Program-made: the position numbers and the translations under genes | The notes under the pieces: generated by a model | Told to the model about the DNA's origin: nothing | The model's input: only the letters and a program-made list of their open reading frames with translations | Databases searched by the model: none | Assembly: GCA_964591715.1 (NCBI GenBank) | Contig: CAZQDR010000003.1 | Span: forward strand, 269-64,268 | Origin: an uncultured Candidatus Saccharibacteria bacterium | GTDB taxonomy: Bacteria > Patescibacteriota > Minisyncoccia > Phycocordibacterales > JACOZG01 | Length of the DNA: 64,000 nt | Reading direction: 5' to 3' | Part shown: one piece after another, positions 33,074 to 62,839 of the stretch | How positions within the stretch are numbered: position 1 is the first letter of the stretch | Layout: each line of letters begins with the position of its first letter

Positions 33074-33502
33074 CTACTTGCGGCCCGTGCTACCAAAAGC
33101 ACTGGTGCCCCGAGAAGAATCGGCCAGTTCAGCGGCTTCTTCCAACTCGGCGACCGCGACGGGATAAATGATAAGTTGAGCCACCTTATCCCCCACTTCA
33201 ACGGTATATGCCTTGTCGCTCAAATTAACCAAGTGAACATTATACTCGCCGCGATAACCAGCATCGAACACGCCACCCATGGTATGTAATCCTGCTTTAG
33301 AGATACTCCCCTTGTCTTTAATAATCGCCGCATAACCAGCTGGGAACTCTAAGGCAAAACCCAAATGGAATCGCGCGTGATCACCCGGCAGAATAGTTTG
33401 TTCTTCTAGAGCATACAAATCTAATCCGGCGTCTCCAGGATGACCATAGGTTGGCTGCTTTGCTTCCGGCTTTAATTTTTTAAACTTTATGGACAGGGAC
33501 AT
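33074..33502 (-). CDS. dut: dUTP diphosphatase
   Basis: 142 aa; trimeric dUTPase motifs incl. GVFDAGYRGE. Confidence 0.9.
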   Translation of the reverse strand: MSLSIKFKKLKPEAKQPTYGHPGDAGLDLYALEEQTILPGDHARFHLGFALEFPAGYAAIIKDKGSISKAGLHTMGGVFDAGYRGEYNVHLVNLSDKAYTVEVGDKVAQLIIYPVAVAELEEAAELADSSRGTSAFGSTGRK

Positions 33503-34187
33503 GTTTCTTCACTAATTTATAAACTTGCTCATGGACCGCTTCGGGCGTTTGGCAAACCATTCCGGCACAACACTCAATGCGGCGCCACTTTTTATCTTTC
33601 TCGGCTAAGGCCAGCGCGCTCTGGCGCGAATTTTTAAGATGGAGCAGATTATCCTCGGCAACATCTTTGCGGCCCTTTAAATATTTCTTACGGCGCTTGG
33701 CGATCTTTTTCTCAAGCCACAGCTTACTCACCTCAAATGGCACGTCTAAATAAATCACCAAATCTGGTTTGGGAATTTTAAAAACGCCGTACTCCATTTT
33801 ATCAAGCCAAGTTAAAAACTCCTGACGCTTTTTAGGATCAGCGATTTTGCCACCCTGGTGGATTTGGTTAGCACTGACATAACGATCAGCGACAACAACA
33901 AAGCCAGCCGCGAGCCACTCTTTAATTTTGGCACTAGTCTCAAAACGGTCCGCGGCATAGAGCACTGAGGCTAGGCGTGGATCAGCCTGAATAAAATCAC
34001 CATGGAGTCCGGAAAGATATTCGCCAATTAAAGCGCCAAAAAAATTATCATAATAACGAGGGAAGTCGATCGTTTTAACCGGCACCTTCTCTTTTTTCAA
34101 CCGGTCAGCTAAAAGTTTAGTTTGCGTCGCCTTGCCTGAACCATCAATCCCGTCAATCACCACTAACCGTCCTGCCGTTTTAGTCAT
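33480..34187 (-). CDS. tmk: thymidylate kinase with Cys-rich C-terminal tail
   Basis: VIDGIDGSGKATQ P-loop, DRF motif. Confidence 0.85.
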   Translation of the reverse strand: MTKTAGRLVVIDGIDGSGKATQTKLLADRLKKEKVPVKTIDFPRYYDNFFGALIGEYLSGLHGDFIQADPRLASVLYAADRFETSAKIKEWLAAGFVVVADRYVSANQIHQGGKIADPKKRQEFLTWLDKMEYGVFKIPKPDLVIYLDVPFEVSKLWLEKKIAKRRKKYLKGRKDVAEDNLLHLKNSRQSALALAEKDKKWRRIECCAGMVCQTPEAVHEQVYKLVKKHVPVHKV

Positions 34188-35445
34188 TTTGTTTTTTAAT
34201 TTTTCTTAAAATTTGATCAATCTTGCCGGCCAATATTTTTACCTGTTTTTCTTTGGCACCGCGGGTAGTCTCGGCCGCTAAACCAATCCGGATTCCCGAC
34301 GGGTCAACGGGCGGCCGAGTATCAAAAGGAATCGCATTTTTGTTCACAATAATCCCCGCCTGCTCTAGCGCCTCACTCGCTGCCTGACCACCAACACCGA
34401 CGCCGTTTAACCAAGTGTCCAGCAAGATCAAGTGGGTGTCGGTGCCATCACTGACTAGCCGCCAGCCCAGCTTCTTTAACTCCATTGCTAGCGTTTTGGT
34501 GTTCTTGATAATTTGAGTGGCGTACTTCTTAAACGCCGGCGTGGCTGCCTCGGCAAGCGCCACCGCCACGCCGGCAATTTGGTTAACATGCGGCCCCCCT
34601 TGGATACCCGGGAAAACCGCTTTATCTATTAAGTCAGAAATAAGCTTCGGTTCGGGCGCAGACTTTCTTCCATCACGGTCAACGAGGGAAATGATTCCAG
34701 AAAGCCCGCGCCCAACCTGCGCCGGTACCCGCCGGCTGAAGATTAATGCCGCTCTCGGACCACGCAAAGTTTTGTGGGTGGTAGTGGTCACGACGTCAGC
34801 GTATGGGAAAGGGCTCGGATGGACGCCCGCGGCCACCAGACCAGCAATGTGCGACATGTCTACCATCAGGATTGCTCCGCAGGCGTCGGCAATCTCGCGA
34901 AACTTTTTGAAATTAATCTGACGCGGATAAGCCGTAAAACCGGCGACAATAATATTTGGTTTTTCTTTAACTGCCAAAACTTTAACCGCTTCGTAATCTA
35001 ACTGTTCACTATCACGGTCAACGGTAAACGGGATTTGCTGCCAGGCTTTGCCAGTTAGGGAGACTTTGTGACCGTGCGTTAAATGACCGCCATGCGCTAG
35101 CGACATGCCCATAATTTTCCCCCCGATTGGGACGAGCGCAGTGTACACCGCCAAGTTGGCCGGTGAACCAGAAAGCGGCTGAACATTCACGGCCCACTTC
35201 TTTGGGCTAAGTTTAAAAAGTTTCAGCGCTCGTTCTTGGCAAAGTCGCTCTACCTGATCAATGATTTTATTGCCGCCATAATAACGCGCGCCCGGATAAC
35301 CCTCGGCATACTTATTATTTAATTCCGAACCCAGCGCCGCCAAAACATCGGCGGAAACATAGTTCTCTGACGCAATTAAATTAACTACCTTCTGTTGTCG
35401 CTCTCGCTCGGCCTTGATCAATCGTTCAATCGGTTTATCTTTCAT
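34180..35445 (-). CDS. glyA: serine hydroxymethyltransferase
   Basis: 421 aa; TTTHKTLRGPR PLP-lysine motif. Confidence 0.95.
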   Translation of the reverse strand: MKDKPIERLIKAERERQQKVVNLIASENYVSADVLAALGSELNNKYAEGYPGARYYGGNKIIDQVERLCQERALKLFKLSPKKWAVNVQPLSGSPANLAVYTALVPIGGKIMGMSLAHGGHLTHGHKVSLTGKAWQQIPFTVDRDSEQLDYEAVKVLAVKEKPNIIVAGFTAYPRQINFKKFREIADACGAILMVDMSHIAGLVAAGVHPSPFPYADVVTTTTHKTLRGPRAALIFSRRVPAQVGRGLSGIISLVDRDGRKSAPEPKLISDLIDKAVFPGIQGGPHVNQIAGVAVALAEAATPAFKKYATQIIKNTKTLAMELKKLGWRLVSDGTDTHLILLDTWLNGVGVGGQAASEALEQAGIIVNKNAIPFDTRPPVDPSGIRIGLAAETTRGAKEKQVKILAGKIDQILRKIKKQND

Positions 35446-35454
35446 GTTTAAGAT

Positions 35455-35943
35455 TTATTTTTTACGACTGCCGTGGAATCTGAGATGGGCATCATCCGTA
35501 ACATACAGCGTTTTTATCCCCGCCTCCAGCATCCGCTCCCAGCAAGGTTGGCAGGCCCACCAGTGACCCCACAAATAGACTTCCGCCCCCGCGGTGACTT
35601 CCCCATTTTTTATTGCATCCGCCACGGCTCGTGATTCTGAGTGAAGCTTGTAATTAGAGCACCCCGGACAAAGCCAATACTTTTGGCCAGTTTTAATTTT
35701 TAACTTGTGCCGGACACACCAACCCTTGGTGTGAAGATCAGCCAAAAAAGCATTCTTTAGTGCTGATTGATTGGCTCCCCGACCGATAATTTTACCGCCC
35801 TCAACAACCACCGCCCCACTTGGCTGATTACGTTCCGTGGCCGACTGAAAACGCATTTTCTTGGCTTCAGCCATAAATTGGTCCGTCTCAGGCACCAACT
35901 TAATCTCGCAACCAGCAGGCAAATAAGGGTAGATAATCGTCAT
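35455..35943 (-). CDS. dCMP deaminase (ComEB/T4 cd-like zinc deaminase)
   Basis: HAE...PCxxC zinc motifs (HAESRAV, CQPCWERM). Confidence 0.85.
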   Translation of the reverse strand: MTIIYPYLPAGCEIKLVPETDQFMAEAKKMRFQSATERNQPSGAVVVEGGKIIGRGANQSALKNAFLADLHTKGWCVRHKLKIKTGQKYWLCPGCSNYKLHSESRAVADAIKNGEVTAGAEVYLWGHWWACQPCWERMLEAGIKTLYVTDDAHLRFHGSRKK

Positions 35944-35982: not shown

Positions 35983-36819
35983 ATGACCGCCTTTGACCGA
36001 ATCTACCAGAATCTGTTAAGGCAAATCATGACCGAGGGCATTGCGGAAATGAGCGAGCGCACCGGCCACGAAACCCGGGCCATCCCCGGCCTCCACTTTA
36101 CGACCGACCTCCAAAAAGACGGCTTCCCCCTACTTACCCTGCGCAAAATACCAATTCGGGTCTTCGTGGCCGAGCAAATTTGGTTTCTCCTTGGCTCGCG
36201 CAAACCAGCCGACTTTCTGCGGGAGTACACTAAAATTTGGGATGACTTTACCAACCCAGGCGATGTCGTCACGGTCGCTTACGGTTACCGTTGGCGCAAA
36301 CATTTTGGCCGCGATCAAATCGCCCTGTTGATTGAACTTTTAACCAAGGAGCCAAGTTCGCGCCACGGCGTCGTAATTGCTTGGGATCCAGCCCAGGATG
36401 GCTTGTCGCTGTTTAAAAAGAAAAACGTCCCCTGTCCCTACACCTTTACCGTTAATATTATTGGCGGACACCTCCATCTCCACAACATGATTCGCTCTAA
36501 CGACGTCATGCTCGGCATGCCTCACGACGTGGCGGGCTTTGCTTTGCTCCAGTGCATTTTAGCCGAACGATTAGGAGTAAAGCCGGGCATTTACTCGCAC
36601 TCTATTTCTAACGCTCATGTTTACGACATTCACTACTCAGCCGCGGAAGAAATAATTAGCCGCCACAACGATCATCCTAATGTGACACTCGAGATTCCCG
36701 CCAACACCTTTGCCCGGATCGAGAACCGCGACCCGGCGATAGCCAAAGAACTAATCGATCAACTGACTAACCAGTACACACCAATGGATGCCATTAAAGG
36801 TTTACAAATTGTCCTCTAA
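35983..36819 (+). CDS. ThyA-family pyrimidine C5 (hydroxy)methylase with dCMP-type active-site signature (not a canonical thymidylate synthase)
   Basis: 278 aa aligns to E. coli ThyA without gaps over PCH..LPFN: C146 kept (C151), H147->P, RSCD->RSND, N177->D182; stop overlaps folA start. Confidence 0.75.
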   Translation: MTAFDRIYQNLLRQIMTEGIAEMSERTGHETRAIPGLHFTTDLQKDGFPLLTLRKIPIRVFVAEQIWFLLGSRKPADFLREYTKIWDDFTNPGDVVTVAYGYRWRKHFGRDQIALLIELLTKEPSSRHGVVIAWDPAQDGLSLFKKKNVPCPYTFTVNIIGGHLHLHNMIRSNDVMLGMPHDVAGFALLQCILAERLGVKPGIYSHSISNAHVYDIHYSAAEEIISRHNDHPNVTLEIPANTFARIENRDPAIAKELIDQLTNQYTPMDAIKGLQIVL

Positions 36820-37316
36820 TGATTCCAGCGTTTATTATTGCCAGCGTGACCGCCGACGGCCTGATTGCCCGTGATGCTAGTCACGCGGCCACCTGGTCCA
36901 GCCAAGCTGATAAAAAGTTTTTTGTGACCCGAACCAAAGCCGCTGGTGCGATCATTATGGGCGCTAAAACTTTTGCCACTATTGGCCGACCCCTCCCAGA
37001 ACGCTTAAATGTGGTTTACACCCATCAACCTTCACCTCACCCTGAAGTCTTGGCCACCGCTTTGCCGCCAGCGGAACTACTGGCGGAACTTGAGCGCCGG
37101 GGCATTAGGGAGGCGGCCATTTGCGGGGGCAGTTCAATTTATACGCTCTTTCTTAAGGCCGGCCTGGTCCAGAAAATTTATTTAACTGTTGAACCACGCC
37201 TCTTCGGCCAAGGCCTCTCGCTTTTTAATCAGGAACTGGACCTCACCCTCAAGCTTTTGTCGACTCAACAATTAGCCCCAGACGTCGTATTATTGGAGTA
37301 TCAAGTAATCACCTAA
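36819..37316 (+). CDS. folA: dihydrofolate reductase
   Basis: 165 aa; DHFR fold motifs (IASVTADGLIA, GGSSIY). Confidence 0.85.
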   Translation: MIPAFIIASVTADGLIARDASHAATWSSQADKKFFVTRTKAAGAIIMGAKTFATIGRPLPERLNVVYTHQPSPHPEVLATALPPAELLAELERRGIREAAICGGSSIYTLFLKAGLVQKIYLTVEPRLFGQGLSLFNQELDLTLKLLSTQQLAPDVVLLEYQVIT

Positions 37317-37318
37317 TC

Positions 37319-37960
37319 ATGGCTGTTATCACCAAAGAAGACATTATCGAACGAATCAAGGGAGGGAGCTTAAAGTTTGTCCCCAATCTCGACGTCTTCC
37401 AGCTTCAAAGCCACTCGGTTGACTTGCGGCTGGGCTTTACTTTTATGCTGCCCAAGATTTGGCATCTCACTACCCGCGGCCGCGAGTCACTCGACATCCT
37501 CCATTTTGATAAACGGACTCAAGAATATTTTGATATCGTAGAACTAGAGGAGGGTCAATACTTTGATCTCTTGCCTCAAGAATATATTTTGGTTTCCACC
37601 CTCGAGACTTTAACTGTCCCTAAAGATTTGATGGCTGTGCTTTATCCGCGCTCCTCGACCAATCGCAAAGGTTTGTCGCTCGACTTAACGGGCATTATTG
37701 ATTCGGGTTACGAAGGCCAGCTAAGCTTACCGATTCGCAATAATACTCGTTCGCAAACAGTGCGACTTTATCCGGGCGAGCGTCTCTGCCAAGTGGTTTT
37801 TGAAGAACTAACCCAAACAATTAACCCGCGCCAAAGTAAGTATCACCAGCGTGACATCATTGACGGCGTTCAGCGCGAAGCCGAAACGGAAGTTAAGTTG
37901 TTGTTAGCCGGAAAAATAAAAGAGTTAAAGCGTGACCACGCTGTCGAGGGCTTGATATAG
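37319..37960 (+). CDS. dCTP deaminase/dUTPase-superfamily protein lacking the Dcd catalytic Glu
   Basis: 213 aa; Dcd-like VDLRLG, PRSSTNRKGL (Ser/Arg kept) but E138 position = Pro138; dUTPase motif III Asp also replaced (IDSGYEG). Confidence 0.7.
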   Translation: MAVITKEDIIERIKGGSLKFVPNLDVFQLQSHSVDLRLGFTFMLPKIWHLTTRGRESLDILHFDKRTQEYFDIVELEEGQYFDLLPQEYILVSTLETLTVPKDLMAVLYPRSSTNRKGLSLDLTGIIDSGYEGQLSLPIRNNTRSQTVRLYPGERLCQVVFEELTQTINPRQSKYHQRDIIDGVQREAETEVKLLLAGKIKELKRDHAVEGLI

Positions 37961-38470
37961 CTCTTCCACCTCGCCATTGTTATTGATCACCACCGAAGCG
38001 GCGTCTTTAAGCGACCGGATTTGAATCTCGGTTTCCAGTTGCTGATCTTTTTGAAATTGCTCCCAAGTTTTGCCGTTATCATCTGGATTCTCACCGCGAA
38101 CTGATAAACGCTTAAATCGAACCTCCGGGTCAGCCTCAAGATAAATTAATTTAAATTGGGGTAACTTTTGGAGAGCCTTAATGTCAGGCAAGCGACGGAT
38201 ACCATCAATGACCACCAGATCAGTCTTGGCGCCCGCCGCGTCCTTGGCCACTATCTCGGAAAATAAATCTTCGCCGAAGGTCTGGCGCAAGGCCAGCGAC
38301 AGTGCCGACATGTTCTCTCGCGTCTCGGTTAGATACAAGCGAGCCATAACGTCGCGCAGTGGCGTAGAAAAGCGATACGACTCGGCGTTAAACTTTTTAG
38401 CTAAATATTTCGTACTGAACGTCTTTCCTGAAGCCATCTCCCCCGTCAAACCAATAATTAATTTAGCCAT
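37925..38470 (-). CDS. P-loop kinase, candidate deoxynucleoside-monophosphate kinase
   Basis: 181 aa; GLTGEMASGKT P-loop; VIDGIRR and C-terminal VINNNGEVEELY resemble my recollection of phage T4 gp1 dNMP kinase (unverified). Confidence 0.55.
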   Translation of the reverse strand: MAKLIIGLTGEMASGKTFSTKYLAKKFNAESYRFSTPLRDVMARLYLTETRENMSALSLALRQTFGEDLFSEIVAKDAAGAKTDLVVIDGIRRLPDIKALQKLPQFKLIYLEADPEVRFKRLSVRGENPDDNGKTWEQFQKDQQLETEIQIRSLKDAASVVINNNGEVEELYQALDSVVTL

Positions 38471-61380: not shown

Positions 61381-61836
61381 TCAGGCAATGGTTTTATCTA
61401 AAGTCAATTTAAGCTGTTTCGCCACCTCTTTAAGTTCCGCCTCTGGACTCGCCTCTCGGCTACCAGGACGATATAAAAATTGACGAGGTTCATATTCAAT
61501 AATTCCTGCGTCACCTTCCTTTCGTGGCAACAAGTGCAAATGAAAGTGCGGCACTGATTGTCCCGCCAATTTACCCTCATTCCAGGCAAAGTTGAAACCT
61601 TCAGCGCCAAACACTTTAGTCAGTGCCCCTTTAAGTGTCCCCATTAAATTAAAAATGGCTTGTCGTTCCGCTTCGGTCAACTCCGCAAAAGTAGCGACAC
61701 AGCGAGTCGGCACAATTAAAACGTGGCCAGGCACAATCGGGATATTGGTTGGGAAAGCGAAAGCTAATTCATTAGAAATAATCACCCGCTCTTTAATAGC
61801 TGGGATTTCACAAAACGCGCAGTAAATATCAGTCAT
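61381..61836 (-). CDS. HIT-family hydrolase
   Basis: histidine triad HFHLHLL. Confidence 0.85.
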   Translation of the reverse strand: MTDIYCAFCEIPAIKERVIISNELAFAFPTNIPIVPGHVLIVPTRCVATFAELTEAERQAIFNLMGTLKGALTKVFGAEGFNFAWNEGKLAGQSVPHFHLHLLPRKEGDAGIIEYEPRQFLYRPGSREASPEAELKEVAKQLKLTLDKTIA

Positions 61837-61962
61837 AAATTTGAAAGCCAGTATATCAACTAATCTCTTGGTTAGAAAGTTAATTGAGTTATTTAAATAA
61901 AAGAAGCCCCGTCAGCATCACGCTGCGGGGCTATTAAGGTTGTGACTGGGGCACTTCTGACT

Positions 61963-62343
61963 TCAGTCCGGCAGAGCTTCGTTATCAAGCTTGATCGCCA
62001 GAGCTAGAAGAACTAACGCATTTCTGACTCTCAAACTACGACCGCCACCGATCATCGTTCGAAAGCGCAAAACCGGTCCGCGGTGCTGGTCGGTGCTTAA
62101 CCAAGCATCACCATCCCGAGTAAACCCGACAATCATCCGTCCTTCCCGCGTGCCATCATGATCATCGTGCAATCTCAAGTATTGCTCATCCACCGATAAT
62201 CCGGTTGGCCAAAAAGGATTGTTCAGCACCCGCAACGCATCTTTGTTCAGTCTTTCGCTGGAGGGTTCCACATTGATCTCCTTATATTTAACCAAGCTCC
62301 CCTCTTCCTCTTTAAAACTACTGCGTTTAGAAGATAGGGTCAA
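61963..62343 (-). CDS. hypothetical protein
   Basis: 126 aa ORF, no family call. Confidence 0.4.
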   Translation of the reverse strand: MTLSSKRSSFKEEEGSLVKYKEINVEPSSERLNKDALRVLNNPFWPTGLSVDEQYLRLHDDHDGTREGRMIVGFTRDGDAWLSTDQHRGPVLRFRTMIGGGRSLRVRNALVLLALAIKLDNEALPD

Positions 62344-62344
62344 A

Positions 62345-62839
62345 TCATTTCCTTGCTCGATATATTTTTAACTTACTGTACTCTTTATCCTCTTCTGACT
62401 CTAACACTAACTCTGGCTCTAGATTAAACACTGGAACACCTTCTACCACTTCAACTGGCACGACATTAAAAATAACCTTGTCGATCAAACCAAGCTTATA
62501 AAAATCAGTATTTAAAGTCGGGCCACTTGATAATAAAATCTTTTTCCCTTGCTCTACCGCCTCTTCTGGCGACCCCACTTTTACATAGCCAAGCTTAGGA
62601 ACGAATTCCTCATTCTTGCTTACGACGACTTTTTTAATTTTAAGCTCTCCAAAACTTCTAACTAAACCTGGTTCATATGATTGAATCACTTCATACGTCC
62701 TTCGGCCCATTACCACGACATCGCACTGACGGCACAAGTTTAAAAAATCACTCCATAGCTCGTCGGGTATAAAATCCTCCGAGTCATCTAATCGAGAAAT
62801 AAACCCATCGGCCGAAATGGCGTTATATAGAGTTACCAT
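62345..62839 (-). CDS. RibD C-terminal domain / dihydrofolate-reductase-like family protein
   Basis: 164 aa; LYNAISADGFI...VVVMGRRTYE pattern. Confidence 0.6.
   Translation of the reverse strand: MVTLYNAISADGFISRLDDSEDFIPDELWSDFLNLCRQCDVVVMGRRTYEVIQSYEPGLVRSFGELKIKKVVVSKNEEFVPKLGYVKVGSPEEAVEQGKKILLSSGPTLNTDFYKLGLIDKVIFNVVPVEVVEGVPVFNLEPELVLESEEDKEYSKLKIYRARK

Follow-up and report, generated by a model that had tools for sequence, protein, structure and literature searches.

The gene under study lies in the window, i.e., the whole 64-kb stretch of DNA that was analysed, and encodes a small, uncharacterised nucleotide kinase that is remotely akin to the phage dNMP kinases (Table 1). It is a real gene and no chance ORF. 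Database searching gave 159 homologs at E<=1e-3, the best of them with E-values from 1e-109 to 1e-47, and a library of 1.84 billion representatives contained 396 matching cluster representatives at E<=1e-30 and 3753 at E<=1e-10. The alignment of 30 diverse homologs has 23 invariant columns, and the AlphaFold2 model reaches a mean pLDDT of 92.3. As had been read from the sequence alone, this gene and the Dcd-like one converge: they lie on opposite strands and share 36 nt at their 3' ends (37925-37960).

The kinase had also been placed inside a deoxypyrimidine cluster, which is borne out by its neighbours, namely DHFR, a ThyA-like enzyme, thymidylate kinase (Tmk), dUTPase and a deaminase. Among 20 small and medium ORFs of the window, no further NMP kinases were found with Pfam, a result that covers 64 kb and says little on the genome. 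An orphan ORF between L11 and the kinase (40664-41221) has no Pfam match, only two near-identical homologs and an AlphaFold2 model with a pLDDT of 43; it gives the impression of carrying a nucleoside 2-deoxyribosyltransferase-like motif.

Table 1. Features of the kinase gene and of its surroundings in the window.
Feature	Coordinates	Strand	Remarks
Kinase CDS	37925..38470	minus	ATG ORF, 181 aa; NMP-kinase fold; gp1/UPF0200/CoaE clade
P-loop GEMASGKT (GxxxSGKT), residues 10-17	38420..38443	minus	G10, G15, K16 invariant
RFSTPLRD, residues 33-40, start of NMP-binding domain	38351..38374	minus	S35, R39 invariant
VIDGIRR, residues 87-93, after strand beta3	38192..38212	minus	G90, R92, R93 invariant
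LID segment RFKRLSVRGENPDD, residues 118-131	38078..38119	minus	R121, R125, N128, D131 invariant
C-terminal VINNNGEVEELY, residues 161-172, strand beta5 and loop	37955..37990	minus	N164 invariant
Dcd-like gene, dCTP deaminase family	37319..37960	plus	catalytic Glu replaced by Pro
Dihydrofolate reductase (DHFR_1 / RibD_C)	36819..37316	plus	
ThyA-like enzyme, Xp12-type putative dCMP methyltransferase	35983..36819	plus	Asp at E. coli Asn177, Pro at His147
Divergent dCMP-deaminase-fold protein	35455..35943	minus	H-S-E and C-x-P-C zinc motifs, inserted Cys-rich segment
Serine hydroxymethyltransferase	34180..35445	minus	syntenic ortholog in L081 carries PF00464
Thymidylate kinase (Tmk)	33480..34187	minus	
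dUTPase	33074..33502	minus	
Ribosomal protein L11 and NusG	41634..42632	minus	flanks the operon upstream, conserved among CPR genomes

The gene context was counted around 79 orthologs of the kinase from CPR (Patescibacteria) genome loci, within flanks of at most 10 kb. A same-strand dCMP/dCTP deaminase is located directly upstream of the kinase in 56 of the 79 loci (median gap 4 bp), and a same-strand ThyA or ThyX directly downstream in 49 (median gap 9 bp). Within a few genes of the kinase, a deaminase is present in 72 of the 79 loci and a thymidylate synthase likewise in 72, and at least one dTTP-pathway gene is found nearby in all 79. The usual order of the CPR operon is cytosine-nucleotide deaminase, kinase, thymidylate synthase (ThyA or ThyX), DHFR, dUTPase, in some loci Tdk, and Tmk. 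The slot of the kinase is constant, and the neighbours are exchanged for non-orthologous equivalents (ThyA-N, ThyA-D, ThyX or TS-DUF4346; dCMP deaminase or a two-domain Dcd). The same operon has its own gene for Tmk and, in some loci, one for Tdk, so the kinase is neither of these. The gene arrangement of the window recurs in L081, whose kinase is 71% identical. The kinase adjoins SecE-NusG-L11 and belongs to an operon conserved over the 79 CPR genome loci; it is chromosomal, conserved vertically throughout CPR and not of phage origin. Gene fusions that could hint at the substrate were looked for among the 150 best matches of the 1.84-billion-representative search, and none was informative: these are proteins of about 180 aa, apart from the tandem kinase-kinase proteins P0241 and P0266, the protein P0140, whose sequence continues into the beginning of an Adk/Cmk-like kinase, and several with N-terminal extensions.

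The call of a P-loop nucleotide kinase made from the sequence alone is upheld by fold, invariant catalytic motifs and homology, and the three motifs named there, the P-loop, VIDGIRR and the C-terminal segment, were all located. In the 30 homologs, which share about 50% identity, the invariant residues include G10, G15, K16, S35, R39, R51 and R62, as well as G90, R92, R93, R121, R125, N128 and D131. The model has the five-stranded parallel core of an NMP kinase (strands 4-10, 30-33, 85-89, 106-112 and 160-163), and K16, R39, R92, R93, R121 and R125 are all kept. The LID, at about residues 121-148, is the mobile part of lower pLDDT. RFSTPLRD is the counterpart of 'LAGPIKD' in gp1 and 'FATPLKK' in the Bacillus phage proteins, and the C-terminal motif is common to gp1 (VITNDGSLEELF) and CoaE (VIDNNG). 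VIDGIRR resembles the 'DGFPR' of adenylate kinase and, by analogy, would form the binding site for the acceptor phosphate. There is no acidic general base after strand beta2, which, judging from established P-loop kinase enzymology, would suit a phosphate acceptor better than a hydroxyl acceptor.

The protein belongs to a clade of small P-loop kinases together with the archaeal UPF0200 family and the phage gp1-type dNMP kinases (PHROG_139); CoaE is a more distant member. Judging by its fold, its intact catalytic motifs, its homology and its place in the operon, it is probably a catalytically competent ATP:(deoxy)nucleoside-monophosphate phosphotransferase and a vertically conserved housekeeping part of the CPR deoxypyrimidine (dTTP) operon. 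Its acceptor may tentatively be given as a pyrimidine dNMP, with dCMP (dCMP <-> dCDP), the branch point at which the adjacent deaminase also acts, as the foremost candidate. The phage relatives suggest that a broader range of dNMPs may be accepted. By the standard NMP-kinase mechanism, Lys16 of the P-loop and R121 and R125 of the LID would grip the phosphates of ATP, S35/R39 and R92/R93 would hold the 5'-phosphate of the acceptor, and the LID would close before in-line transfer of the gamma-phosphate.

Other functions have to be weighed against this assignment. The enzyme could be a deoxynucleoside kinase that converts deoxycytidine or deoxyuridine into the monophosphate for the adjacent deaminase and thymidylate synthase, providing an entry for salvage. 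The position beside dCMP deaminase would fit a kinase, deaminase, thymidylate synthase and Tmk sequence, the Pfam dNK model gives a weak match at the N-terminus (4.7e-4), and the TK1-type Tdk of some operons is not known to use deoxycytidine. Dependence on salvage would be expected, since CPR bacteria are described as having very reduced genomes and as generally unable to make nucleotides (PMC7304191). Nevertheless, this function is unlikely: hydroxyl-directed kinases have an acidic base after beta2, in place of which an invariant Ser/Thr and Arg are found here; the seven invariant arginines, including the Adk-like DG-x-R-R and those of the LID, are typical of phosphate acceptors; and those relatives that can be recognised, the gp1 family and Adk, phosphorylate NMPs. 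Sequence models of anti-phage systems (the PADLOC 'dCTPase' model, 4.6e-7 over residues 3-171; the NCBIfam anti-phage dCTP deaminase, 1.2e-4) and the CDA-fold deaminase that directly precedes the kinase in most loci, at the median gap given above, would fit a nucleotide-binding partner of the deaminase that senses or presents (d)NTPs in a split DcdV-type architecture. However, every catalytic kinase residue is invariant, the kinase is kept where a dUTPase-fold Dcd takes the upstream place of the CDA-fold deaminase (L001/L002), kinase and deaminase stand apart in the window, and the only fusions among the 150 best matches are kinase-kinase tandems, none with a deaminase, all of which makes such a partner quite improbable. 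By pure inference, the kinase might also act as a surrogate for nucleoside-diphosphate kinase (dTDP to dTTP, dUDP to dUTP). The operon loci cover all steps to dTDP and have no Ndk, R51, R62 and R93 are extra invariant arginines relative to the paralog of the family, and the tandem fusions could run consecutive steps; still, no relative is known with dNDP to dNTP conversion as its main activity, and this role is hardly to be expected. Dephospho-CoA kinase, the JGI annotation of many homologs, is the least credible of all. Best matches to CoaE or to an unrelated kinase family, which would speak against the original call, did not turn up; the CoaE matches are partial and stay below the cutoffs (Pfam PF01121, 19.6 bits vs 27 and N-terminal only; TIGR00152, 25.1 bits vs 65.55). 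The catalytic Asp that in CoaE directly follows strand beta2 and acts on the 3'-OH falls on the invariant Ser35 ('VNVDRIG' in T. maritima 2GRJ vs 'yrfStil'), the N-terminal and central regions fail to align in hhalign, and deoxypyrimidine enzymes, not a CoA pathway, neighbour the kinase in 79 of 79 loci. The archaeal CoaE-like proteins TK1334 and TK2192 have no DPCK activity (PMC6650551). The CoaE identity was therefore rejected.

The sequence-only reading had further proposed a role in phosphorylating a modified dNMP. In such a scheme, 5-methyl-dCMP (or 5-hydroxymethyl-dCMP) made by the ThyA-like neighbour would be carried through the modified dNTP into DNA, as T4 gp1 does with hm-dCMP. What leaves this role a small probability in this genome is the Xp12 dCMP-methyltransferase type of the ThyA-like neighbour: the enzyme carries Asp at the position of Asn177 and Pro at that of His147, the two positions most associated with cytosine-modifying thymidylate synthase homologs (PMC8670742). 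Its nearest phage homologs are those of Xp12, a 5-methylcytosine phage, and its relatives (36-40% identity, vs 27-30% to the Asn-type ThyA of CPR); the Dcd-like gene without the deaminase Glu could serve as a dCTPase; and the kinase is in the PHROG family of T4 gp1. A dedicated role is nevertheless improbable and was not sustained. Orthologs of the same group (about 50% identity) are also found in operons whose thymidylate synthase is a canonical Asn-type ThyA (ThyA-N) or ThyX and makes no modified nucleotide, and the gene is chromosomal and CPR-wide. No residue specific to the kinases of ThyA-D operons was found in the alignment comparison, and the window kinase is 46-51% identical to these kinases and up to 58% to others. 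The NTP-pyrophosphatase, thymidylate synthase, deaminase and DHFR cassette of Xp12-type phages has no homolog of the kinase. In ThyA-D loci, GC content and the CpG observed/expected ratio are ordinary, and a comparison of GC, CpG and TpG observed/expected between variant and canonical loci as a signature of genomic 5-methylcytosine gave no difference, a result that is not decisive. Deamination to dTMP could use up all the 5-methyl-dCMP. For the variant-operon lineages (this window, L081, L005, L057, L060, L062 and L071), it can be imagined that the Glu-less Dcd-like protein gives dCMP from dCTP, the Xp12-type ThyA homolog makes 5-methyl-dCMP, the kinase phosphorylates it, and 5-methylcytosine replaces chromosomal cytosine before replication, which is very improbable. 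If true, it would mean nucleotide-level cytosine methylation in a cellular organism, while we know of such replacement of cytosine by 5-methylcytosine only in phages so far. Much likelier, if still short of an even chance, is that an Xp12-like 'methylate first, deaminate last' route to dTMP only passes through 5-methyl-dCMP and that the kinase takes ordinary dCMP. The kinase of this genome could also meet 5-methyl-dCMP and yet not be specialised for it. No literature joining Patescibacteria, thymidylate synthase and dCMP was found, and none joining CPR with dNMP kinases.

The kinase has a central place in the CPR thymidylate operon across the radiation, yet its annotations go no further than 'AAA family ATPase', 'hypothetical protein' or, wrongly, 'dephospho-CoA kinase'. 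Assigning its substrate would fill a step in the DNA-precursor synthesis of CPR bacteria, to which salvage should matter because their genomes are described as very reduced and nucleotide synthesis as generally absent (PMC7304191). It would also offer a first functional lead for the related archaeal UPF0200/arCOG01045 kinases, found in almost every archaeon but of no known function (PMC6650551), and shed light on the gp1-like kinases encoded beside thymidylate synthase in many phages. In the cluster of the window, the kinase is the only one that could act on the product of an Xp12-type dCMP methyltransferase; its specificity would therefore decide between 5-methyl-dCMP remaining an intermediate on the way to thymidylate and its entering the DNA.

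Among known families, the kinase has full-length sequence and fold similarity to UPF0200, the archaeal group represented by Sulfolobus SSO1041 (PDB 3LW7/3H0K; arCOG01045 'CoaE-like'), which was crystallised with AMP and has Ser in place of R93. The archaeal model NF006226 (PRK08356) matches over its full length (4-190 of 195, E 1.8e-23) with 83.3 bits, below the equivalog cutoff of 189, and this family is thus related to the kinase and distinct from it. No papers on UPF0200 were found in the literature, where 3LW7 is mentioned only in passing. Adenylate and UMP-CMP kinases differ in the sequence of the NMP domain and in the LID, and the kinase is no member of them; Pfam ADK or Cytidylate_kin gave no match at E<=0.1, and the thymidylate kinase model PF02223 gave a partial one (E 0.0027). 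The anti-phage dCTP deaminases (PADLOC 'dCTPase', NF041025, DcdV type) have a homologous kinase domain, and the pairing of such a kinase with a cytidine-deaminase-fold enzyme recurs in both. The DcdV type fuses the two domains, whereas here each has a gene of its own within a housekeeping operon. The resemblance is only weak, and there is no defence context.

The likeness to T4 gp1 noted from the sequence alone stands as remote homology via PHROG_139, while the comparison with gp1 alone is too weak. The PHROG_139 profile matches the kinase over its full length (1.3e-18, profile positions 81-260), T4 gp1 (1.8e-65, positions 83-261) and the kinase of Bacillus phage BSP14 (1.4e-46, positions 81-265), and hhalign of the kinase with BSP14 gp030 gives 98.5% probability over 171 columns, also at full length. 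Directly against gp1 (PDB 1DEK), phmmer gave E 0.46, the profile match was 1.2e-4 in two short stretches, and hhalign reached 66% over 39 columns; the similarity is restricted to the N- and C-termini. The Pfam DNMK model (PF21448) stays below its gathering threshold (22.8 bits vs 27.1) and covers residues 5-68 only (positions 2-64 of 232). As judged from these profiles, the link to gp1 holds only through PHROG_139 and its Bacillus phage members. The only phage matches to the kinase are to 24 Bacillus phages, at 23-27% identity and none above 27.5%; their genes sit between thymidylate synthase and DHFR, a neighbourhood like that of the kinase. The phage PHROG_139 kinases are of the same remote-homology family and share with it the motifs [FL]-[SA]-x-P-[LI]-[KR], D-x-x-R, E-T-E and V-I-x-N-[ND]-G-x-x-E-[ED]-L. 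With 241 aa, gp1 is 60 residues longer, and in the Bacillus phage alignment the extra residues fall in the NMP-binding region. T4 gp1 acts on dGMP, dTMP and hm-dCMP, a specificity that cannot be transferred to the kinase. The PHROG_139 kinases are phage-borne, whereas the gene described here is a chromosomal one that CPR bacteria have conserved vertically.

The kinase is encoded by what is clearly a genuine gene. Its open reading frame and motifs are present exactly as the sequence-only reading had claimed, and the convergence with the Dcd-like gene noted there was also borne out, the 3' ends overlapping by 36 nt. The first protein search returned 159 relatives, each of about 180 aa, with best E values from 1e-109 to 1e-47. 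An exhaustive profile search recovered 396 cluster representatives at E<=1e-30, a number that rose to 3753 at the looser E<=1e-10. Among 30 homologs of about 50% identity, 23 positions are invariant, and the AlphaFold2 model has a mean pLDDT of 92.3 and a pTM of 0.86.

Features of the kinase gene and of the surrounding window (L numbers denote fetched genome loci with relatives of the kinase)
Feature	Position	Strand	Remarks
Kinase CDS	37925..38470	-	ATG start, 181 aa, ORF listing
P-loop GEMASGKT	kinase residues 10-17
VIDGIRR	kinase residues 87-93
C-terminal motif VINNNGEVEELY	kinase residues 161-172
Dcd-like gene	37319-37960	+	cluster-29 homologs in L005, L057, L060, L062, L071
ThyA-like gene	35983-36819	+	also in L081, L005, L057, L060, L062, L071
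Divergent cytidine-deaminase-fold gene	35455-35943	-	cluster-30 homologs in L005, L057, L060, L062, L071
Two inserted genes	38519-41221	-	between L11 and kinase, relative to L081
Orphan ORF (inserted gene 2)	40664-41221	-	168-185 aa
Second RibD_C/DHFR-like region	61381-62839	-	ORF 62345-62839; HIT-family protein 61381-61836

The comparison of dNMP kinase, CoaE and AAA families proposed in the sequence-only reading left only the generic kinase models AAA_17 and AAA_18 assigned by Pfam. DNMK (T4 gp1), dNK, CoaE, phosphomevalonate kinase and Tmk gave partial, sub-threshold matches. The closest solved relative by sequence is Sulfolobus SSO1041 (UPF0200, "AdkA-like"; phmmer 3.4e-10), an uncharacterised homolog matched over its full length by the family profile (4.1e-23). 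The nearest NCBIfam model is the archaeal PRK08356 "hypothetical protein" (1.8e-23, far under its cutoff). In the phage family search, the kinase matched PHROG_139, "deoxynucleoside monophosphate kinase", over the full length at 1.3e-18; this family contains T4 gp1 (1.8e-65; query 100% identical to T4 gene 1) and a Bacillus phage kinase (1.4e-46). Profile-profile comparison with the Bacillus phage BSP14 kinase gave 98.5% probability (E 2.7e-15, 171 columns) and aligned the P-loop, [FL][SA]xP[LI][KR], D-x-x-R, the LID motif R-x3-K/R-x-G-[ED]-N, E-T-E and V-I-N-N. With gp1 alone the alignment was confined to 39 N-terminal columns (66%), with E. coli CoaE to 62 C-terminal ones (90%). Structure search against viral models returned mostly proteins named dNMP kinase, plus "dephospho-CoA kinase" and "adenylate kinase". 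The kinase is therefore a member of a clade uniting UPF0200, the gp1-type dNMP kinases and, more distantly, CoaE. It falls by profile criteria within the gp1-containing PHROG_139 superfamily, misses the curated thresholds of Pfam DNMK, CoaE, Tmk and PRK08356, and can best be classed as a separate, uncharacterised bacterial subfamily of Patescibacteria (CPR), an enzyme of known kind; a search for literature on this subfamily found none. The proposed resemblance to phage-type dNMP kinases is thus real but remote. The C-terminal motif taken as a sign of gp1 is present, but V-I-x-N-N-G also occurs in CoaE and is not diagnostic.

Dephospho-CoA kinase (CoaE), the competitor raised in the same reading, did not appear as the best match and is excluded. 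Every CoaE model remained under its cutoff, and in the profile alignment the catalytic Asp after beta2 of T. maritima CoaE (2GRJ) aligns with the invariant Ser35. Two purified archaeal CoaE-like proteins of arCOG01045, TK1334 and TK2192, had no dephospho-CoA kinase activity (PMC6650551); judging from annotation and N-termini, they would correspond to UPF0200 and PRK08356. JGI annotates many homologs of the kinase as "dephospho-CoA kinase", which for these three reasons is most likely an over-annotation.

For the genomic context, 80 loci with kinase relatives were fetched and their neighbouring genes were clustered. All are apparently CPR/Patescibacteria MAGs, a few bearing other automated taxonomic labels. 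The main ortholog group comprises 79 proteins of about 49% identity to the window kinase in a single conserved slot. A same-strand cytosine-nucleotide deaminase lies directly upstream in 56 of the 79 (median gap 4 bp), and a same-strand thymidylate synthase directly downstream in 49 (median gap 9 bp); within a few genes, each is found in 72/79, and at least one dTTP-pathway gene is near the kinase in all 79. The consensus order is NusG, L11, (L1), dCMP deaminase, kinase, ThyA/ThyX, DHFR, dUTPase, (Tdk), Tmk, (MazG), GatB. The kinase slot is constant while the neighbours are swapped for non-orthologous equivalents: the synthase may be an Asn-type ThyA, an Asp-type ThyA, a ThyX of about 450 aa or a TS carrying a fused pterin-binding domain; among the deaminases, dCMP deaminase alternates with a two-domain dCTP deaminase.

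The genes for L10, L11, NusG, SecE, EF-P, RecA, RecO and TatD mark the window as ordinary bacterial chromosome. In L081, whose kinase is 71% identical, the gene arrangement is exactly the same: one strand carries SecE, NusG, L11 and kinase, the other Dcd-like, DHFR and ThyA, after which come deaminase, SHMT, Tmk and dUTPase. Given this locus and the conserved CPR order, the convergent orientation is a local inversion of the ThyA/DHFR/Dcd-like block inside a conserved operon. Of the two inserted genes of the window, one encodes a 686-aa protein with a hydrophobic N-terminal segment, from its sequence possibly a secreted repeat protein. The other is the orphan ORF, which has only two near-identical homologs, no Pfam match and an unusable structure model (pLDDT 43); its resemblance to nucleoside 2-deoxyribosyltransferase motifs is an impression only. 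The second RibD_C/DHFR-like ORF, near a HIT-family protein, is distant from the operon's own DHFR.

Several loci show further variation. The unusually long ThyX (Pfam Thy1, about 430-485 aa) occupies the ThyA slot in L008 (10548-11900), L049 (5383-6750) and about 40 others. In L001 (4719-8556) and L002, which carry the closest kinases (57-60% identity), a two-domain dCTP deaminase (DCD_N + DCD_C, 369 aa) precedes the kinase, which faces a 500-aa TS-like protein fused to the pterin-binding DUF4346, plus an NAD-binding oxidoreductase, an unusual thymidylate synthase system. Single-polypeptide thymidylate kinase-dUTPase fusions of 394-445 aa lie directly downstream of the kinase in L070 (10592-11929; domains by Pfam), L078 (8762-9988) and L045 (1400-2584; both from BLAST matches). 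A paralogous kinase of about 30% identity occurs in L017 (8752-9312), L026 (1189-1758), L027 (4120-4734), L028 (3351-3929) and 13 others, often directly ahead of the dCMP deaminase, so that the order becomes kinase-deaminase-kinase. It has a more gp1-like GSGKDT P-loop, Lys for R39 and NG.RM for DG.RR; these differences at the NMP site suggest a different substrate. Two kinase domains of this family are joined in tandem within each of P0241 (379 aa) and P0266 (395 aa).

Alignment and model show an NMP-kinase fold. Its P-loop is intact (K16), S35, R39, R51 and R62 of the NMP-binding domain are invariant, beta3 is followed by an adenylate-kinase-like D-G-x-R92-R93, and the mobile, Arg-rich LID contains R121 and R125. 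An acidic general base after beta2 is absent. By established P-loop kinase enzymology, this absence together with the many arginines argues for a phosphate (NMP) acceptor and not the hydroxyl of a nucleoside or dephospho-CoA. Since Tmk, and Tdk in some genomes, have genes of their own in the operon, the kinase is neither. From both arguments it is rather likely to be a (d)NMP kinase in deoxypyrimidine metabolism. The preferred acceptor, put forward tentatively, is dCMP: dCMP <-> dCDP would be the branch point common to the kinase and the neighbouring deaminase, and the reversible step could feed dCTP or yield dCMP from reduced CDP. The phage relatives suggest that a broader dNMP range may be possible. 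Less likely explanations would make the protein a deoxynucleoside kinase, an NDP-kinase surrogate or a deaminase partner as in DcdV-type enzymes, the last favoured by a PADLOC match (4.6e-7).

In the ThyA-like protein of the window, Asp stands in for Asn177 of E. coli ThyA and Pro for His147 (GMPHDVAG, VPCPYTF). These are the two TS positions most strongly associated with cytosine-modifying homologs, and changing Asn177 to Asp makes TS a dCMP methylase (PMC8670742). Among phage proteins, the TS homologs of Xanthomonas phage Xp12 and relatives come closest to the ThyA-like protein (36-40% identity) and share the signature motifs AYGYRWRxHFGRDQ, NVPCP and P[HY]DVxGxALL with it; its identity to CPR Asn-type ThyA is 27-30%, and its best match to a solved TS scores 127 bits. 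This gene of a bacterial chromosome probably encodes a dCMP methyltransferase. The variant operon, found in the window and the same six loci as this gene, combines it with DHFR, the Dcd-like gene and the divergent deaminase. The Dcd-like protein scores above the TIGR02274 cutoff, with the catalytic Glu of all solved Dcd structures (TLEL) replaced by a conserved Pro (LSLPIRN); it occurs only alongside Asp-type ThyA and probably acts as a dCTP or dUTP pyrophosphatase, not as a deaminase. The divergent deaminase keeps H-[SAG]-E and C-x-P-C, has an inserted Cys-rich segment and a zinc motif reading GHWW.C, and stands in for the ordinary CPR dCMP deaminase wherever Asp-type ThyA is present. It is a candidate 5-methyl-dCMP deaminase and does not specifically resemble the deaminases of Xp12-type phages. 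Read most economically, the variant operon would provide an Xp12-like route from dCTP through dCMP and then 5-methyl-dCMP to dTMP; 5-methyl-dCMP is thus probably a metabolite of the organism. Both substitutions also occur in canonical long-lineage ThyA of L024 (10539-11450) and L048 (10541-11449; PPCPSFFQFY, VPFDIASY), which keep the ordinary dCMP deaminase and lack the Dcd-like gene; these enzymes seem to have shifted independently towards a cytosine substrate.

Such a route would provide a modified dNMP, and the sequence-only reading had suggested that the kinase phosphorylates one. The evidence points away from a specialisation for it. Operons with Asn-type ThyA or ThyX contain the same ortholog, no alignment position separates variant-operon kinases from the others, and the window kinase is 46-51% identical to the former and up to 58% to canonical ones. 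Moreover, Xp12-type phages have no kinase homolog, and GC content and CpG statistics are unremarkable. A dedicated role is accordingly improbable, and full genomic replacement of C by 5mC is more improbable still.

The kinase is ordinary as a fold and mechanism, a conserved step of CPR DNA-precursor metabolism. In this cellular genome it adjoins what seems to be a route to thymidylate through dCMP methylation in the manner of phages. Both have phage counterparts. In Xp12, all cytosine is replaced by 5-methylcytosine; the phage induces a folate-dependent dCMP methyltransferase, and "new thymidylate biosynthesis" was reported for it (PMC8543423). The phages with the closest TS homologs, Xp12 (L085), RcRudolph (L086), ZQG1 (L087) and PaMx74 (L088), all four carry the same cassette of NTP pyrophosphohydrolase (MazG or HAD), TS homolog with Asp, dCMP deaminase and DHFR. 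Gene for gene, its functions match those of the CPR variant operon, with a non-orthologous pyrophosphatase. The Bacillus phage kinase homolog is located between thymidylate synthase and DHFR; in Bastillevirinae phages (BSP14, L083, 3069-5194) it overlaps the thymidylate synthase end by 4 nt and DHFR comes next, a neighbourhood functionally the same as that of the CPR kinase.
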